A stretch of DNA of 63,237 bases, filler included, from Rhabdomonas costata (lineage: Eukaryota), in NCBI GenBank assembly GCA_019059605.1. It is 46 parts of 46 records of this genome, joined end to end, with 100 filler letters (N's around TTAATTAATTAA, not from the genome) between each part and the next. Parts side by side here need not be neighbours in the genome. Positions count along the whole stretch, not along the records: positions 42,693 to 43,969 come from JAHMHO010020946.1; positions 44,070 to 45,346 come from JAHMHO010020947.1; positions 45,447 to 46,723 come from JAHMHO010020948.1; 43 more parts are not named here. One strand, given 5' to 3'. Numbering within the stretch: position 1 is the stretch's first letter; every line of letters starts with the position of its first letter. The position numbers and the translations under genes were made by a program. The notes under the pieces were generated by a model that was given only the letters and a program-made list of their open reading frames with translations, was not told where the DNA came from and ran no database searches. Of the stretch, positions 20,656 through 60,493 are shown in pieces.

Positions 20656-21929
20656 GGTGTGTGGGCTTCCGTGTGAACTGGTGACACCGTGATCCTCAGG
20701 CGTTCGGTACCCTTGGGTACCGTGGGGTAGTTGATGGGCTGCACGTAGATCCCGTGCCTCGCCATCAGCATGTCACTGGCCTTCTTACATAGCGTGGGCT
20801 GAGTGTGGGAAGGCCACCAGATGGACGCAAAGGTTGGAGGCGGTTTCCCGATATCAAAAATTTCGAAAATTCGAAAAATTCCCATCAAATATTTGGACGG
20901 TGTTGTCGGAGTTGAACGGTGAGCCAGAAACGGCACCCACGAGCCATTCTCACGTTCCGCACCCCCACTTCGAGGACATCGGCAGCTTCGCCAGATGTGT
21001 GCCCACGGGTCGCAATTCCAGGCCAATATGAAGAGAACATGGTGGACTTTTGTTAGGGAATGTACTTCGGCCACTATCGGGGCTCGAACAGCTGCACTAA
21101 AAATGACACCCCCCAGGGCTGCTGGTTTGACACGCACGCGGCGCACATTTCCGATGAACAGGGGCGTGATGTGGCTCTCACCCTCCATCAGCGGGAGCCC
21201 CGCCGCGCGCATCATCTGCTTCAGCTTCTGCACGTTGGTATGGAACGTGAACCGCTTCATCACACCCTTCACCCCGCGCAGAGCCTTCACGCTGCACACC
21301 AGTAAGCGCATATAAGAAGGAGACAACAACCTCAGGGCAGATACGTGAAAAACCAAAAAGACGCGTACCTAATATATGTGTGTCTAATATATTCAATACA
21401 GTTCGGGACAACGAGGCAATCAAAGAAAACCATACAAGGGATCCAGAAACCTTCTCATGTTGCTGCTGTTACCAATTGTTCAGATACAGCTCCGTTTTCT
21501 CAGCTGGGCAGTAAGTGCCCAGAAATAGGGGCTATTGTGACGTGAAGGCTGAAGTGAAGGGGCATCCTTGGGCATGTTGGTCGTTTGGGACCTTCAAACA
21601 GTCAATAACACCTATAAACTCCCTTGGCCTGGCATACCTTCATCTTGGGGTGTTGACCTTTCCCTGCAATCTGACCCCTGGGTTGAAAAATGATGTCACT
21701 CAATAAAAAGCGAGAAGTTTTTGACTGTTCAGTGTGCATAAACGAAAGCAGCCCCCACCCACCCAAAGGAAATCAAAACGGTGGCCGCAACCTTGCCAGC
21801 GCCGCCGCGGCCACGTGAGGCGGTGTGGAAGTGGAAAAGATGAACCCCGGCGCCTTGGAGCGGATGGAGTCCACAATCGCCGCAGAGCTCGCGACGTAAC
21901 CCCCAACCACACCGTAGGCCTTCCCCAAA
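20656..21929 (-). CDS. ALAS: 5-aminolevulinate synthase, partial; exons ~21929-21792, 21291-21147, 20798-20656
   Basis: [11 protein letters not shown] (PLP lysine), [22 protein letters not shown] and [23 protein letters not shown]. Both GT-AG introns join in frame. Confidence 0.93.
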
Positions 21930-22273
21930 CAANNNNNNNNNNNNNNNNNNNNNNNNNNNNNNNNNNNNNNNNNNNNTTAATTAATTAANNNNNNNNNNNN
22001 NNNNNNNNNNNNNNNNNNNNNNNNNNNNNNNNGGGTTTGGGTTTCTTGGGTCACCGCCATACAATTGCTCTTCCAGGCTTTCTCTTTAGTGCCACTGCGC
22101 CAAAGGTATGAGGTAGTGTGACTCATATTATTCCAAAGGCTCGTCTCACGGAGTCAAGGAGCCTTCTTCTCTTGACAATGATGTTCTCGTGGCATCGCCG
22201 GAACGGCGCAGTCAGTGGGACGGCATGAGGTTGTCTGTTTTCCCTGTGAACCCTCTTGCGGGGGGGGGGGCAG

Positions 22274-24681: not shown

Positions 24682-24944
24682 ACCCCCNNNNNNNNNNNNN
24701 NNNNNNNNNNNNNNNNNNNNNNNNNNNNNNNTTAATTAATTAANNNNNNNNNNNNNNNNNNNNNNNNNNNNNNNNNNNNNNNNNNNNACAGAGGTGGTGA
24801 GCAAGCATCGTGTGGCGCCGTCGCGCTGGCTGCCGTCGAGCGGAAACTGATTGAACGCGCTACACCAGCTGAGTCCGGGAACTTGCGCAGTGCACGCGTA
24901 CAGAAGGTTAGTGCGTTGTGTGCTCACACGCACGTCTTTTTCAG

Positions 24945-25748
24945 GTCCACATCTCCGATGTCTCGCTTCCTGTTGCCGTGGGACTGTGGGTGATGATGCT
25001 CCCCGTCCTGACGAAGGTCCGCTATGAGCTTCTGGGCACCATGCTGCGCACCCGCAGCTCCGCGAAGCACCTGCTAGTCTCCTTCGTCCTAAACTGGGCT
25101 GTCGGCCCTGCCGTGATGACCGGTCTGGCCTGGGCCTGCCTCCCCGACCTACCCCACTACCGTAGCGGCGTGATCATGGTGGGCCTGGCGCGGTGCATCG
25201 CCATGGTGCTAATCTGGAACGAGCTCGCAGGGGGTAGCCCAGAGATGTGCGCGGTGATGGTGGCGCTGAACTCCGCCCTGCAGATGCTGCTCTACGCACC
25301 CTTCGCGATGCTCTACGTGGGCTCCTCTGTTGGGGTCTCTGGGGACCTCTTCTGGCGGATCTGCAGGAGCGTGCTGGTGTTCCTGGGGATCCCTTTGGCG
25401 GCGGGGGTGCTACTGCGGGTGGTGCTGGTCCGGGCGAAAGGCAGGGACTGGCTGGAGAAGCGCTTCATGAAGTTCTTCGGGCCGTGCGCATTGCTGGCCC
25501 TGTTGTACACTATAATCGTGCTGTTCGCGGCGCAGGGGGACCGGGTGGTCTCTGAGGTGGGCAGCGTGGTCCGAGTGGCTGTCCCGATGCTGGTGTATTT
25601 CGCCCTGCTCTTCATGGGCTCGATGGCGCTGTGCTGGTTCACCGGCGTCCCGTACCCATTGGCCGTCACGCAGGCCTTCACCGCCTCAAGCAACAACTTC
25701 GAGCTCGCGATTGCAGTCTCAGCGGGAGTCTTCGGGGTCAAGTCCCCG
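24945..25748 (+). CDS. ACR3: Arsenite efflux transporter ACR3, large internal exon
   Basis: VSLPVAVGLWVMMLPVLTKVRYE, LNWAVGP, GLARCIAMVLIWN, ALNSALQ and ASSNNFELAIAV are ACR3 motifs. AG acceptor ends at 24944, GT donor at 25749. Confidence 0.95.
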
Positions 25749-26164
25749 GTATAACCGTCCTGTGCCTGTATCTCCGTTTATATCGTGGAGCTTTTTTGTG
25801 CTGCTGGGTACCACTCTCTTCAGCGAGAAATGAGCGTTGCAATATCAGTGCAGATCAACGTGATCACACAGAAGCGTTTTACGGCTAGTGCGGGATGTGG
25901 TTTCTCATGCAAAAGTGTTGCTCTATGAGATGTTTCGACTGCGAAAGGGTTGCTGTAACTTATATTCCCGTTCTTGCGGTGTTTCGATCACTTGTCTAGA
26001 CCCTTGCACCCTCCATCCAGAAACGCACTACCTTACCCCCCCAACACCCACACACACCCAACACNNNNNNNNNNNNNNNNNNNNNNNNNNNNNNNNNNNN
26101 NNNNNNNNTTAATTAATTAANNNNNNNNNNNNNNNNNNNNNNNNNNNNNNNNNNNNNNNNNNNN

Positions 26165-42692: not shown

Positions 42693-43276
42693 TCGTAGTA
42701 TATTTCTTTTTCTTATACAATCAATAATTATGTTTCTTATCTGGTGTATCATTAACTATTTTCATATCAACATATTGAAGACGTAACGGTGGTTGCATTG
42801 TGTACAGGCACAATGTTAAGTACTGTTGATTTACTTTATTGTCATGAAGATTTTCAGTGAATTTTTGTTTGTATTCATCTCGTTTTTGTATTATTTCTTT
42901 AAATGTTACTTGATTTATTTCTCGTGATGGTGATAATGTTTGATACGCTTGTTGACTTTCGACTTGTTTCTGTATTTGCACTGATTCTTTAGAGAATTTC
43001 CTATATAATCTTGACTTTTTACTATTATAAACTTTAAATGCTTTCGCTAAAGAGCTTAGGTTAGCTTTTTTTGAAATAATATTTTCATACGTTTTATTTA
43101 TAAAATTGTATATCCTTTTGTGACTTTTTAAAATCCATTTAAAGTTATTTTTGTGATATGTAATTGTCAATCTGCGAGCCCATAACTTAAATCTGTATAT
43201 ATCATTAATATTAAACGTATCCAAATAATAAACATGATATAATTCTTGTATATCATGATTACATTACACATTTTTA
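42693..43276 (-). pseudogene. Viral tyrosine-recombinase-like gene, apparently disrupted
   Basis: AT-rich and intronless. LCLYTMQPPLRLQY resembles the LYTxxPPxR catalytic-Arg box of PLV/virophage recombinases. In-frame TGA at 42723-42721 and no in-frame ATG. Confidence 0.55.
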
Positions 43277-43324
43277 CAGGAAAAACAAAAAATTCTAAGA
43301 AATAAAAATATATAGTATTTTTAT

Positions 43325-43651
43325 ATGGAAAAAATTACACCTCAAAATTATGTCTTTAAACTTGGTAAATACAAAAACATGAAAGCAGTTGATGTTGCAA
43401 GATTAAAGACAGTAGATAAGAACGGTAAAGACAGAAATACAGGTAGATCTTATTTAGAATGGATTGTTAATCAAGATTGGTTTCATCATAAAGACATAAT
43501 ACAGAAAATTATTGATGCTGTAAAGGAAGAAGATCCAGACACAGAAGAGGAAATAGAAGATAAACCTAAAATAGAAAAGAAGAAGAAAAAAGAAGTAAAA
43601 ACAGTAAAAATTAGTGCAGCAGAACAGGATAAAACAATACATTTTCAGTGA
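43325..43651 (+). CDS. Small viral protein with F.xGKYK...YLEW motif (DUF3820/QSregVF_b-like) and charged tail
   Basis: Complete ATG-to-stop ORF with VFKLGKYKN...SYLEWIV and AT-rich codon use. Confidence 0.7.
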   Translation: MEKITPQNYVFKLGKYKNMKAVDVARLKTVDKNGKDRNTGRSYLEWIVNQDWFHHKDIIQKIIDAVKEEDPDTEEEIEDKPKIEKKKKKEVKTVKISAAEQDKTIHFQ

Positions 43652-43680
43652 AAAATAAATTGTTAGTTAAATAATATATA

Positions 43681-43926
43681 ATGGATCAGAATAATAAGAA
43701 GAAAAGAAAATATAGCGATATTGTTAATCAATTGCATGCTATTGATTTAAACATTAAACCAGTTGATTATCTGCCATGTGTGATTTGTAAGAATCGAGTA
43801 TATGAATACCGAATGTTTGAAAATAAAGATTTTGTTACATGCTGTTATGACTGCTTATCATTATTAGCACTATCAAAAAAAGAAGGATTATTACATGAAA
43901 GAAAAGATAAAACATCTTTTGAATAA
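43681..43926 (+). CDS. Small viral zinc-binding protein
   Basis: Complete ORF with CVIC...CCYDC and a basic KKKRK stretch, 29 nt after the previous gene. Confidence 0.65.
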   Translation: MDQNNKKKRKYSDIVNQLHAIDLNIKPVDYLPCVICKNRVYEYRMFENKDFVTCCYDCLSLLALSKKEGLLHERKDKTSFE

Positions 43927-43956
43927 TTAAAAGTTGTTCAAACAACTTTTAATTAT
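43923..43956 (+). terminator. Perfect AT-rich hairpin overlapping the stop codon
   Basis: ATAATTAAAAGTTGT-TCAA-ACAACTTTTAATTAT forms a 15-bp stem. Confidence 0.7.
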
Positions 43957-46616
43957 GATACAGTATAAANNNNNNNNNNNNNNNNNNNNNNNNNNNNNNN
44001 NNNNNNNNNNNNNTTAATTAATTAANNNNNNNNNNNNNNNNNNNNNNNNNNNNNNNNNNNNNNNNNNNNGAGGGGGGTGAGTGGTTCAGCGGCCACACGC
44101 AATGACCCACATTACGCCTCTGTAAGTGATAGAAGCTAGGTCACTTTGCCGAGTGGCAGGTGTCCTGCCTGTGTTTGTCGGTGGACTTGAAGGTTTCTTT
44201 TGATGTTGGTTTTCAATGTCATCTTGGTGTGCGCAGAGGATGCAATCGCAAAATTAAATGCATTTGTGGCTTTGTCGTGCATTGTTGAAGTGATAAACCA
44301 TGATGCGACAGTGGAAGCCACGCTTTGGAGACCGGCAATGTATTTTTGAATACAACAGAGCTCTCAGCTCAACTGCTTGTGGCTAGAAACGACTCTGCAT
44401 TGATATTTGTATGGAACTCATCTCCGCGCTCTCTCCTCAGAAACGCCTTAGTCTGGAAGTCCATCGCCATATGTGGATGGGTCTTTAAACCCTGAAATCC
44501 TACTAAACATCTCTCAACCTCTTATTTGGTCTGTGGAGGAAGATGATACTGATCTGGAACCTGAAACCAACCAACGCAAAGCTTCACAATAGTCTGCACC
44601 ATTAGTTCTGGGCAAAGATCCATCTGAGAGTGGTATGCTGTCCCTCTCATTTAGCAATGGGTCTGAATATGTAATTGTGATGGTTTTGGCTTCACAACAG
44701 GCTTCACTGGGTACTGACATGGATGACTTCGAGGGTACCTGAATATGGAACTGTGGAATAAATGGCTGGTGATGTGTCTTTCACCATGGTCCATCCGTCT
44801 GCATCCATTCATTTCTACCACTTCCACAACCGCAACGTACCTCTGCATGGTCACCAAAAACTACAAACACTACAGTTCGAGTCTTCGCATTAACTTTTTG
44901 GACCGCTCCAGCATATGTGGATGTGTATGATGACGGTTTGTTGCCAATTAAAATTATTTAACTGGGTCGTATGGCTTGGTTTAGGCTTCTGAAACTTGGA
45001 CGCCGGTATAGAACTGGCACCTGCCCACGTATGCTCGTAGACTGCTCCATGGACCTCGCTACACTTCTTTTTGGTTTCTGTAACCGAATGTTGTACCGAA
45101 GCTGGTCAACTTTGGAACTGTCCCGGGATCCTCCTTGAGAACTGCCCTCTTTGTTGAAGACAATGGCGTCGCTATGGCCACCACTGTCATCGTCTTATCG
45201 CCGCTGCTGTGCATTACATCCTCTGGTAGATTCCAGCAACCGTTACATACACATCTTTGTCTGTGGCAAAATCGATCCCAACGAATCTGCAACTGGTTGC
45301 TGTGGAGGGGTCTTCGGGGCTCAAGGGACGTACTTCACCACCAACCNNNNNNNNNNNNNNNNNNNNNNNNNNNNNNNNNNNNNNNNNNNNTTAATTAATT
45401 AANNNNNNNNNNNNNNNNNNNNNNNNNNNNNNNNNNNNNNNNNNNNGGGGGTTTGGGGAAATTCGATCGGAAAACGAATGCTATGGCCCAGCGGGGATGC
45501 GTTTACACGCAAATTCTTTTTTAGGAAGTTTGTTGGTGCAAATGCGCCTCATGAGTAGTGAACGTCCAAGTTTGGGAGCTGGGAGCTGGAGGCTGGACGG
45601 TTAACGGTGTTAAACCTTCAGTTTTCTTCTTTTGTTTTCTCCGCGCAAGCACAAGAGACGTTTAACACTTTTAAACGACAAAGGTCAAATTTTTGCAAGA
45701 CCCCCCCCCCAAGGCACGCTTCTGCCTGAGGAGTTACGAGACAGTGTCTGGGACGTTTGCTTACTGGGGTCTCCTTGAAGTGAATAGGCATCGCGCTAAA
45801 ACCACTGATCACCAAATCTTATCGAAATTCCAAGAATTCTAGGAGCGAAAGAGCTTTCTAAAGAACTGTTACAAAACAATTGTCGGTATGACTGCAGTTA
45901 CTCAACAGAGCAGCTGAAGTGATGCGCTCATCTCATCTCATTACAAAATAGACCACAGCGCACGACATCTTGTATACAACTTAGTGAGCGGCATGTATAA
46001 GTGTTCACAAGTGTATCTAATTCGTGTAAAAAAAAATGCAATACTTTCGGACACGTTTGCCGGCGTTGAATATGGTCGTAACCTGTAAGAACCTGTACGA
46101 GGGATTTTTAACAAGAAACGAATTGATGAAGCAGCGGTAATACAGGTGGCTGGGTAGGAGGGATTGTGACGCATTCCATTTCAAAGGTTTGGTTGTTTTG
46201 GGGTGTCCCCTTTTTTCCGTTCTCATCCATTTTACCCGACTCCGGCAGCACTCCTTTAAGGAACCCGTTTTGTTGCGTTGCGTCTTTCCCCGACATTCTG
46301 GGTTGGCTCAGGTCGGAGACATTGACTGGGCCGTTGCTGGGTATCGCGGAGCGGTGGCCGACATTGTTCCTGTCCCCGGCAACCTGGGAAAGGGCGCTCA
46401 GGTTCCGAGGGGGGGTGGTCCTCTTTAAGCTCCCGTCATTCTGACCCCTGTTCGTCCACCTCAGCTTGCACCTCACGTGTCCCTGTCATGATTTTTTTTA
46501 TCTTTTTAACGGCATGCGATGCGCGACAGTTGGATGGTGTTTATAACCTTAATTTACCGGAAAGTCTTGACTACGCCCAGATTTGCTTTGAACTTTGAAT
46601 TGAGTTTAGTTGTGAG

Positions 46617-52231: not shown

Positions 52232-52335
52232 NNNNNNNNNNNNNNNNNNNNNNNNNNNNNNNNNNNNNNNNNNNNTTAATTAATTAANNNNNNNNNNNNN
52301 NNNNNNNNNNNNNNNNNNNNNNNNNNNNNNNGGGT

Positions 52336-53430
52336 TTGGGTGTCAATGGAATGAAGAGTTCCCGTGGCCATTTTTCACGACATTTAAAACTCTCAAAGCT
52401 TCAGGTACCACTGGCCCCCAGGGAACACCTCCCAAGCATATATGATTTGGGCCATGCATATGGCAACGCTTCCTCTTCAGAGTGCGTCGCTGGATTCCAC
52501 ATCGGGCACGACAGGAACCTTGCCGTCTTCAATGAAGGAATTTTGGCCTCGATTTCCTCGTACTCCTCGATTCTTGAGTTTGCCAAGGCGATTTGTACCC
52601 TCCCTGCTGCATGTCCGCTTGTTGGAGACAGCCCCTTGTGGAGACAGCTGTTGTCCCGCGAGGCTGCAGTGCTGCGGCAGCGGTGTGGCAAACCCATTCT
52701 GTGGATCGGAGGGCACCACGCTGCCCATGCCGCGTATGGGTTCTTTACCTCCCCCCTGCGCTCGGCCCTTGTGCTGGCCCTGGATGGAGGAGGTGATGTC
52801 CAGCCCCTAGCGTCGAGCCTCTACCTGGCCAGCCGGAGTGCTGGGCTGCAGCGGGTGGAGGTCAGCAACCTCAGCATGGGCTGCCTTTGGTTCAACCTCA
52901 ATCGGGCGGCACGGTGTGGGCAGAAGCTCGCCCCCTCCCACAGTGCAGGGTGGCCTGATCAGCTCATGGCCGAGCCGCAAGCCACGCCCGAGTCCTCTTT
53001 GCTAGCCTTGCAGGGTGAGGTGAACTCTTTCCTGGAGGACTGCTGCCGAACGGGCTGGTTTCAGGTTCGGGTGCGGTGCCCTGGACGGGCCAAGGCCATA
53101 GCTACCAAGCATGGCATCTGCGCGGCGTCCGGGAAGGCTTTGTTGGCTGCGGCACTGAACGCGGTGATGCTTGCGAGAACTCTGGAGCTTGCCCTGCCAC
53201 ACCTGCAGAGGCATAAAGTGGAGGGGGTGGTGCTCTGTGGTGGGGTAGCTTACAACACAGCGCTTCGTGAAAATCTGTCTCGAAAGCTCAGGGTGAGGGT
53301 GTATGCCCCACCTAATCCGGGGGACATCACCCTCGGTATCGGGCATGCTTTATTGTACTTTCGGACCCCGTGGGCCCTCAAGGTTAACGAGACTCTTGTC
53401 CAGAGAATGGTTGTATACAATTCCAGGTAG
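52336..53430 (+). CDS. Carbamoyltransferase (NodU/CmcH family) N-terminal Kae1-like domain
   Basis: GHD near the start, HHAAHAAYGFFTSP, LALDGGGD, LCGGVAYN and VYAPPNPGD...IG. The true start is uncertain and there is a possible GT donor at 53427. Confidence 0.85.
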   Translation: MGVNGMKSSRGHFSRHLKLSKLQVPLAPREHLPSIYDLGHAYGNASSSECVAGFHIGHDRNLAVFNEGILASISSYSSILEFAKAICTLPAACPLVGDSPLWRQLLSREAAVLRQRCGKPILWIGGHHAAHAAYGFFTSPLRSALVLALDGGGDVQPLASSLYLASRSAGLQRVEVSNLSMGCLWFNLNRAARCGQKLAPSHSAGWPDQLMAEPQATPESSLLALQGEVNSFLEDCCRTGWFQVRVRCPGRAKAIATKHGICAASGKALLAAALNAVMLARTLELALPHLQRHKVEGVVLCGGVAYNTALRENLSRKLRVRVYAPPNPGDITLGIGHALLYFRTPWALKVNETLVQRMVVYNSR

Positions 53431-53712
53431 TCTTCACATTTGTTAGATGTACTTAATAAGAATGTGCAAAAGGGCTGTTTTCGCGCAGTTTAAAGCGTCT
53501 TTGCATTGCAAAAAGGAATACCCATTTGAAAGTGAATTTCGTGGTCACGTATGCGATGGTTGTAAGGGCGTTCTAACAAATGTGAAGACTACCTGGAATT
53601 GTACACAANNNNNNNNNNNNNNNNNNNNNNNNNNNNNNNNNNNNNNNNNNNNTTAATTAATTAANNNNNNNNNNNNNNNNNNNNNNNNNNNNNNNNNNNN
53701 NNNNNNNNGGGT

Positions 53713-59216: not shown

Positions 59217-60493
59217 TTTTTTAAGTGTATCTCTTGCTGATGTGGCGATTACATCGCCATTAGATCATCAATTACTCGTTTATGATAATGCAACTAGTAA
59301 ATGGATAAATACAACTGGATTATTAAATGTATCATTATCTGATGTGGCGATTACATCGCCCATAAATCATCAATTACTTATTTTCGATTCTGTATCTAAT
59401 AAATGGATCAACACATCTGGATTATTAAGTGCTTCTTTATCTGATGTGGAGATATTATCTCCACAAGATCATCAACTAATTGTGTATGATTCAGTATCTA
59501 ATAAATGGAAAAATACAACTGGTTTATTAAGTGTATCTCTATCAGACGTGAATATCACGTCTGTATCAGAGAATCAATTACTTGTATTTGATACTGCTTC
59601 TAGTAAATGGATAAATTCAAGTACATTATTTGATACAGTATTTACTCTTGTAAATAACGTTGATAAAACAAAGAAAGTACAACTGTCATTATCAGAAATT
59701 ACAAGTGGCGAAACAAGAATTTTAACTGTTCCTGACGCTTCTTGTGTCCTTGTTGGAGATACAAATGTTCAAACATTAACCAATAAAACATTAGTTGATT
59801 CATCAAATATTATAATGGCTACTTCATTAAAATCTGCAACATCAAACATTGATATATCATCTGCGATCGCACCAACCAGTAATCAAGTACTTACTGCAAT
59901 TAATCCTGCTACTGCAAATTGGCAAACTTTGGATTCATCTTTCTTATCTGATATGGCAATTACATTGCCATTAAATAATCAATTGATGATATATGATTCT
60001 TTAAATAATAAATGGACAAATGGAAATGGTCTATTAAGTGTATCATTATCTGATGTTGCGATTACATCGCCATTAGATCATCAATTACTCGTTTATGATT
60101 CTGTAACAAGTAAATGGATAAATACAACTGGATTATTAAATGTTTCTTTAGGAGACGTGAAAATCACGTCTCCAATGAATTATCAATTACTTATTTATGA
60201 TTCTGCATCTAATAAATGGATTAATACATCTGGATTATTAAGTGCTTCTTTGTCTGATGTAGATATAATATTGCCTCAAGATAAACAATTACTTGTTTAT
60301 GATTCTATGTCGAATAAATGGAAAAATTCAACTGGATTATTAAGTGTATCTCTATCAGACGTGAATATTACGGCAGTATCAGATAATCAATTACTTGTAT
60401 TTGATTCTTTATCTGGTAAATGGACAAATTCCAGTTCATTATTCGATACAATATTTACTTTGAAAAATAATATTGATCCAACCAAAAAACCAC
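59217..60493 (+). CDS. Viral fibre/adhesin-like repeat protein, open across the whole contig
   Basis: AT-rich and intronless. Nine 34-aa units (DVxITSPxxxQLLVYDxxxxKWxNxxGLL) plus a TRILTVPDA...QTLTNKTL...QVLTA...ANWQT segment. Confidence 0.8.

Follow-up and report, generated by a model that had tools for sequence, protein, structure and literature searches.

A partial Cre-like tyrosine recombinase gene on an AT-rich contig of the Rhabdomonas costata assembly, tentatively placed in the eukaryotic virus world

A window of 63,237 nucleotides from the genome assembly GCA_019059605.1 of the protist Rhabdomonas costata was analysed, concentrating on one AT-rich contig located at positions 42693-43969 (JAHMHO010020946.1). 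On its minus strand, this contig carries the 5' half of a gene belonging to a family of predicted Cre-like tyrosine recombinases. The contig is tentatively read as AT-rich foreign DNA of the eukaryotic double-stranded DNA (dsDNA) virus world, coming most likely from a small integrating element of the Polinton-like virus (PLV) or virophage type, a reading to which a probability of about 0.45 is assigned.

Rather than a single molecule, the whole 63-kb window is a series of 46 contigs of 1267-1280 bp each, joined by artificial spacers of the form N...TTAATTAATTAA...N, and features found side by side in it are therefore not physically linked. The interval 42693-43969 corresponds exactly to one complete contig of 1277 bp. 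Its GC content is 25.6%, to be compared with a mean of 51.7% (standard deviation 3.0, range 45.9-59.6) for the 44 contigs which are not AT-rich (z = -8.8). Its AT-richness extends over the full length, leaving no host-like flank, and three open reading frames (ORFs) fill 84% of it. An earlier, sequence-only reading of the same DNA had described the region as sharply AT-richer than the host contigs and tightly packed with genes, and both descriptions hold. Only one further AT-rich contig, at 59217-60493 (29.8% GC), is present in the window.

Features defining the contig and its minus-strand gene:
42693..43969, no strand: whole stand-alone contig, 25.6% GC, 84% coding
42693..43224, minus strand: 5' half of a predicted Cre-like tyrosine recombinase gene, recognised from 180 relatives, their alignment and the modelled fold of the closest one (P0001); the gene exits the contig end
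42721-43224, minus strand: ORF1, open frame of 167 aa, which begins with TTG and closes at TGA

The minus-strand gene and its family

Relatives of ORF1 were collected with HMMER, run exhaustively over 1.84 billion cluster representatives, and counted at E <= 1e-3. The resulting set includes 180 sequences, 52 of which at E <= 1e-10, and the closest one, P0001 (333 aa), is 49% identical to ORF1 over 164 residues (E 9.1e-39). In nearly all matches ORF1 aligns with residues ~1-166 of longer proteins: 128 of the 150 listed matches are at least 250 aa long, their median length is 345 aa, and the proteins of the family measure 300-450 aa. Because the query matches only the first ~165 residues of its longer relatives, ORF1 is the front half of a gene. 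Its product takes in the core-binding domain at the N-terminus and, from the catalytic domain that follows, about 40 residues with the first catalytic Arg (within PPLR); the catalytic two-thirds of the gene lie beyond the contig end.

The fold of the family was evaluated on P0001, modelled with AlphaFold2 on an alignment of 60 relatives (predicted local distance difference test, pLDDT, 93.5; predicted TM-score 0.86). When this model was compared with the PDB by Foldseek, the top matches were all tyrosine recombinases (XerA; Cre, with TM 0.55-0.57; XerH; lambda Int; TelA). VIA-align superposed it on Tre/Cre over 259 residues and both domains, with Z 14.9 and a root mean square deviation of 4.4, and gave Z 11.2 for lambda Int and about 10-10.8 for type IB topoisomerases. 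In the alignment of 60 relatives, R146, K182, R250 and Y286 (P0001 numbering) are nearly invariant, being conserved in at least 90% of the sequences, and follow each other in the order expected for the active site of a tyrosine recombinase; ORF1 holds only the first Arg of this set, in PPLR, and the others fall beyond the contig end. A distant member of the family, L029, also passes the Pfam Phage_integrase model, with 36.1 bits for a cutoff of 27.1. The modelled fold of the closest full-length relative and the conserved R, K, R, Y columns thus support a family of Cre-like two-domain tyrosine recombinases. The two-domain fold of the superfamily is seen in the P0001 model, and ORF1 itself would correspond mostly to the first domain.

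The comparison with Cre of phage P1 and the engineered Tre can be followed in some detail. As in these enzymes, a helical N-terminal domain acting as a DNA clamp is predicted to precede the catalytic domain (model residues 3-324 against 41-341 of Cre), and the Arg, Lys, Arg and Tyr columns are conserved in the expected order. Unlike them, the family shows an identity of 10% and no sequence-level match to any PDB recombinase; the His of the usual HxxR box does not appear conserved, as read from the alignment; and the copy in the window is limited to the N-terminal domain and the first Arg.

Searches starting from ORF1 itself were less informative. ORF1 has no Pfam match at E <= 10, Phage_integrase (PF00589) included. 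For the three ORFs together, Pfam and PHROGs returned nothing below E 0.016, all matches being below cutoff, and PHROGs nothing below E 0.017. A word-index protein search with the three ORFs produced 14, 6 and 1 candidates, none of which scored, and IMG/VR scans with ORF1, ORF2, ORF3, P0001 and P0158, another member of the family, as queries found zero relatives each. A single-sequence search of ORF1 against the PDB sequences gave only chance helical matches.

The state of the gene was read from an alignment of ORF1 with eight close relatives. The codon at 43222..43224 (minus strand) is TTG, where all eight relatives carry Met, as the initiator in six and as an internal residue in two, and no in-frame ATG is found upstream before the next stop. 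A TGA, in frame at 42721..42723 (minus strand) and 28 nt short of the contig end, occupies a column filled by I, L, M or F in the relatives; past it, nine codons (LYKKKKYTT) still align with LxKxxKYxV of the relatives, up to the contig end. As assembled, the gene is therefore deprived of its usual start, interrupted by a stop and truncated where the contig ends. The first two defects would be in line with the decay of an integrated copy, but could also be errors in a low-coverage contig. The sequence-only reading had proposed a recombinase-like gene on this strand: family and fold bear this out, through the Cre match at Z 14.9, and the ORF has to be corrected, since it begins at TTG with no in-frame ATG and the TGA taken as its stop is internal to the gene. 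A code in which TGA is read as Trp was also considered and appears unlikely, since the close relatives are intact and full-length under the standard code, and Trp is encoded by TGG four times on the contig.

Relatives in the virus world and the recombinase clades

The structural neighbours of the family are mainly viral. In BFVD, the best matches to the P0001 model, with E between 3e-12 and 1e-5, are mostly giant-virus proteins, together with a protein of the Qinghai Lake virophage. The sources named are Virus NIOZ-UU159, Aureococcus anophagefferens virus, Hokovirus, Tetraselmis virus 1, Heterosigma akashiwo virus, Pyramimonas orientalis virus, Hyperionvirus, Harvfovirus and the Qinghai Lake virophage, and phage integrases start only from E 2e-4. 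The ESM Atlas clusters nearest to ORF1 have scores of 0.95-0.96, and viral members make up 94-100% of two of the top three, Preplasmiviricota being the commonest source; lower rows correspond to ResT/TelK or Crypton-derived domains.

A metagenome scan for the family yielded 75 loci, and the single IMG/VR relative lies on a contig of a giant-virus metagenome-assembled genome (MAG). The genomic context was typed with Pfam on 92 + 95 neighbouring ORFs, for 76 loci in total. In the virophage locus L066, genes for a D5-like helicase, a V18/19 penton and a Sputnik-type major capsid protein (MCP) accompany the recombinase gene. A PLV-like context surrounds the gene in L020 and L046, where a Pox_A32 ATPase, a lipase, a GIY-YIG protein, a fibre protein and a DUF5906 helicase are encoded. 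The context of L029 and L061-64 (TFIIS, Mre11-Rad50 fusion) is of the giant-virus kind, one of these loci being located on a 257-kb contig, and so is that of L001. A few loci of the family look eukaryotic. In prokaryotes and their elements, P0001 had no tblastn match among 50,697 phage records or 72,556 plasmids, the DNA of the contig had no match in the same phage records, and none of the 14 pattern matches found in a GTDB scan of 185,579 prokaryote genomes was a relative, a weak negative since a single pattern was used.

Within the distant relatives, a tight subclade (L058, L052/L059, L068, L048) adjoins eukaryote- or transposon-like genes, such as DDE_3 transposases, proteins with GPS motifs and a fused NAD synthase. 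These neighbours hint that some copies are integrated into the genomes of eukaryotes or giant viruses.

In a quick maximum-likelihood tree of 55 sequences, including ORF1, ORF1 pairs with L002 (support 99) within a clade of 28 rows (support 99). The only member of this clade with an informative context is L018 (24% GC), where the recombinase gene adjoins one for a 744-aa helicase with 37% identity (E 1e-71) to its counterpart in the PLV-like L020 and only 22% to phage primases. Among the 26 listed cluster members, the longest contig measures 21.7 kb and carries P0158, and just two of the 26 bear names, both "hypothetical protein". P0004, P0005, P0008 and P0013 are encoded on contigs of 5-7 kb. 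No neighbour gene common with ORF2 or ORF3 was found among 20 loci of the clade.

Many proteins of the clade (P0002, P0005, P0008, P0013-P0015, P0158) share a conserved C-terminal extension of ~60 aa beyond the catalytic Tyr (alignment A2, columns ~400-471). Its pattern, ...KYxxNKxxILRxKIIxNLNKGxxxKPxxxTIxKYxLxxxxxxxKW, has no Pfam match and is missing from P0001. Two loci, L025 (10264 bp) and L037 (6542 bp), have mirror-symmetric ORF maps, with ORFs of equal size on arms of opposite orientation; the symmetry suggests either an inverted-duplication artefact of the assembly or a large hairpin-like element with a recombinase gene.

The closest known system is that of the OLV11-type recombinases. 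In Yutin et al. (2015, PMC4642659), OLV11-like tyrosine recombinases are described in PLVs, among the virophages of the Organic Lake group, in PgVV and in the Aureococcus virus; PLVs are said there to carry often a lipase, a GIY-YIG protein and a superfamily 3 helicase (S3H), and the ATPase to be part of a conserved morphogenetic module. The present family resembles the OLV11-type proteins in being part of the tyrosine-recombinase superfamily and poorly recognised by standard searches, in having genes both in small AT-rich elements and in Aureococcus anophagefferens virus, and in having distant members in virophage- or PLV-like contigs with lipase, GIY-YIG, S3H helicase and A32 ATPase. The P0001 model, moreover, matches a protein of the Aureococcus virus (E 1.7e-11, 23% identity) and the protein of the Qinghai Lake virophage. 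The differences are that the protein in the window belongs to a separate, well-supported clade with scant known genomic context, and that many members of this clade have the additional conserved C-terminal stretch of ~60 aa. ORF1 would fit as a relative of the OLV11-type recombinases, judging indirectly from the two structural matches and from the contexts of L020, L046 and L066.

The small plus-strand frames and the palindrome

The rest of the contig is occupied by the following elements:
43225..43324, no strand: divergent intergenic spacer, 100 nt, 16% GC
43325..43651, plus strand: ORF2, 108 aa, with a Lys/Glu-rich tail; relatives undetected
43681..43926, plus strand: ORF3, 81 aa, with a KKKRK patch and a cysteine pattern; relatives undetected
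43923..43956, no strand: perfect 34-nt palindrome across the ORF3 stop codon

The divergent arrangement of one gene and two small ORFs is as originally described; the spacer between them, given at the time as ~50 nt, measures 100 nt (43225-43324), or 61 nt if the stop codon upstream of the minus-strand frame is taken as its limit. ORF2 and ORF3 are unlikely to be chance ORFs, because no case with two ATG-initiated ORFs of at least 81 aa was found in 2000 base shuffles of the contig; single ORFs of at least 81 aa were present in 49 shuffles, and of at least 108 aa in seven. A single-sequence AlphaFold2 model of ORF2 has a pLDDT of 52.8 and is unusable. ORF3 displays an N-terminal basic patch, KKKRK, and a CxxC...CCxxC set of cysteines which, to judge from the sequence, may form a small zinc ribbon.

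The palindrome is AT-rich, with 16-nt arms and a 2-nt centre. Its folding energy is -14 kcal/mol (z -4.8), and none of 200 shuffles folds equally well. Perfect hairpins with a stem of at least 10 bp are found in seven of 17 scanned loci of the recombinase clade, mostly near the end of an ORF, for a frequency in shuffled sequences of at most 0.4 per locus. The palindrome is therefore regarded as a candidate transcript-end hairpin or protein-binding site. In Mimiviridae, transcripts end at hairpin-forming palindromes (PMC4402537), and, on that basis, a perfect AT-rich palindrome directly at the end of ORF3 is similar to them, as far as can be judged from DNA. The differences are that one instance only is present on the contig and that its shape would also suit a terminator of the bacterial type, or a binding site for the recombinase or another protein.

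Expression signals of other types were not found on the contig. Shine-Dalgarno motifs (GGAG or AGGAGG) have zero occurrences anywhere on it, confirming what had been noticed at first inspection; sites similar to those for sigma-70 are at the level of shuffled sequences (10 against 10.3 +/- 3.2), with no enrichment; neither a GC-rich terminator nor the mimivirus early-promoter octamer AAAATTGA is present. A TCTA, occurring once in the spacer, was evaluated as a promoter cue and discarded as worthless, since this 4-mer is found on the two strands of the contig seven times in all. The contig and 20 related loci lack terminal repeats, direct or inverted, and there is therefore no sign of circular units or of units bounded by terminal inverted repeats. 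Rfam gave zero matches across the whole window.

Origin of the contig

A small element of the PLV or virophage type is favoured over a fragment of a giant virus because the nearest ESM Atlas clusters are most commonly from Preplasmiviricota, the helicase of L018 is of the PLV type, and the 26 listed cluster members lie on contigs of at most 21.7 kb. The sequence-only reading had gone further and proposed a fragment of an endogenous virus of the PLV or virophage type: the wider part of this proposal, the eukaryotic virus world, agrees with the virophage, PLV-like and giant-virus relatives found here, and the choice of PLV or virophage over giant virus is one that the data favour and do not impose. 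As to its being endogenous to this host, the DNA may be an integrated copy, an episome or from particles present in the culture.

A number of results weigh against the assignment to a small element. All loci whose surroundings can be recognised as those of a virophage, a PLV or a giant virus fall within a separate clade of 27 rows, and not in that of the window. The best BFVD matches, obtained with a predicted structure, are proteins of giant viruses and not of PLVs. The contig was found to carry neither terminal repeats nor genes for a capsid, a packaging ATPase or a polymerase, and none of the three ORFs matches the module formed by MCP, penton and A32-type ATPase, in a contig of 1277 bp which is too short to decide. 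As to the recombinase itself, none of 20 close full-length relatives has a Pfam match at E <= 0.01, and the profile of the family, compared with the PDB sequences, found no recombinase and only chance helical matches. For ORF2 and ORF3, relatives were found neither in 50,697 phage records nor in IMG/VR, in the word-index search or among the 76 loci of the family, and the leads provided by ESM for ORF2 are weak and mostly from phages, i.e. ExoX-like_C and QSregVF_b clusters of Uroviricota with scores of 0.77-0.88. Hairpins placed directly after genes, finally, would fit bacterial terminators as well.

The strongest competitor is a fragment of a giant virus (Nucleocytoviricota, e.g. an AT-rich mimivirid), either free in the culture or sample or integrated, for which the recombinase would be one of many genes of the mobile-element type. 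This origin is considered unlikely, albeit less so than the others discussed below. A GC content of 25.6% is typical of mimivirids, and 10 of the top 13 BFVD structure matches are named giant-virus proteins. The only IMG/VR relative lies on the giant-virus MAG contig mentioned above, and the ORFs adjoining it are, as we take them to be, mimivirus-like, one of them presumably resembling a poly(A)-polymerase gene. Giant-virus-like genes are also found near the recombinase in L029 and L061-64, one of these loci being part of the 257-kb contig, and the palindromic hairpin at a gene end would fit the Mimiviridae rule for transcript ends (PMC4402537). All these giant-virus loci, however, belong to the other recombinase clade, members of the clade of the window being found, among the 26 listed cluster members, only on contigs within 21.7 kb, with L018 next to its PLV-type helicase; core genes of giant viruses are absent from the contig. 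Hairpins do not discriminate between a giant virus and a virophage, because virophages reportedly use the expression signals of their helper virus.

Two non-viral or phage-related origins were also evaluated, in relation to the second AT-rich contig and to the lesions of the gene. The contig at 59217-60493 is covered over its whole length by one uninterrupted frame, which contains repeats of ~33 aa (LSDVxITSPxxxQLLxYDxxxxKWxN). It matches phage fibre or tail families of PHROGs with E down to 7e-26, and has weak matches to cyanophage proteins and 21 weak IMG/VR relatives. It likely encodes a fibre protein of the phage type, to judge from its sequence, and is possibly another contaminant, distinct from the target contig. 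The AT-rich fraction of the assembly may hence not be a single entity, and the assembly may include two or more kinds of non-host DNA; the argument from composition alone is therefore weakened, which is a further point against the preferred assignment. A bacterial or phage contaminant, derived from an AT-rich bacterium in a non-axenic culture, would be in line with these PHROG and cyanophage matches, with the Uroviricota leads of ORF2 and with the similarity of hairpins after genes to intrinsic terminators. TTG starts and TGA read as Trp also occur in some AT-rich bacteria. A best match to bacteria or phages, which the sequence-only reading had indicated as the sign of such a contaminant, was nevertheless not found for the target contig in the phage records (searched with contig DNA, P0001, ORF2 and ORF3), in the plasmids (searched with P0001) or in the prokaryote pattern scan, where none of the 14 hits was a relative. 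The three proteins have no PHROGs match below E 0.017, Shine-Dalgarno motifs and GC-rich terminators are missing, sigma-70-like sites are not enriched, and both the intact close relatives and the four TGG codons for Trp conform to the standard code. Nothing on the contig points to bacteria, and contamination is considered improbable. Least probable by far is a piece of an organelle genome or plasmid of the host, using TGA for Trp and non-ATG starts. The contig is AT-rich, and a TGA at a hydrophobic column and a TTG at the start position would both be allowed by NCBI table 4; against this stand the lack of an organelle context in any of the 76 loci, the close relatives, full-length with no TGA, the use of TGG for four Trp codons, and the absence of organelle rRNA or tRNA from the Rfam results for the window.

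Returning to the small PLV- or virophage-type element, the mechanism which we infer, along with that assignment and the role of the palindrome, would be as follows. The enzyme of an intact element would bind paired inverted sites and cleave them by its C-terminal tyrosine, aided by the Arg-Lys-Arg set; through a Holliday junction intermediate, the circularised genome of the element would be inserted into, or excised from, the DNA of the host or of a helper virus. The present copy would be incapable of this as assembled, having TTG in place of Met, an in-frame TGA and the catalytic two-thirds off the contig. The two divergent small genes would be specific to the lineage, and the palindrome at the end of ORF3 would most likely be the 3' end of a transcript. 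A more specific and rather doubtful version of this reading is that of a decaying endogenous copy, with initiator lost and a premature TGA, from a new lineage of small AT-rich integrating elements related to PLVs and virophages, residing in a protist of ~52% GC. Such a lineage would be defined by a clade of Cre-like recombinases, invisible to Pfam and with a C-terminal extension of its own, known almost only from short metagenome contigs.

If integrated, the element would flag the host as a carrier of PLV- or virophage-type elements, which are under study as defences that hosts might induce against giant viruses, and would provide the first host anchor for a recombinase clade otherwise seen only on anonymous metagenome contigs. 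As it stands, it is a short, apparently defective fragment, whose value is that of a pointer to the other AT-rich contigs of the assembly.

The remaining contigs of the window contain few frames spanning the whole contig, and microsatellites of the CA type are seen in their translations; they look like eukaryotic nuclear DNA. Three long frames, in 52332-53608, 24788-26064 and 20656-21932, encode what we take to be a carbamoyltransferase-like protein, an ACR3/bile-acid-type transporter and a 5-aminolevulinate synthase, respectively. No TGA codon occurs in frame in them, a point in favour of the host nucleus using the standard code.

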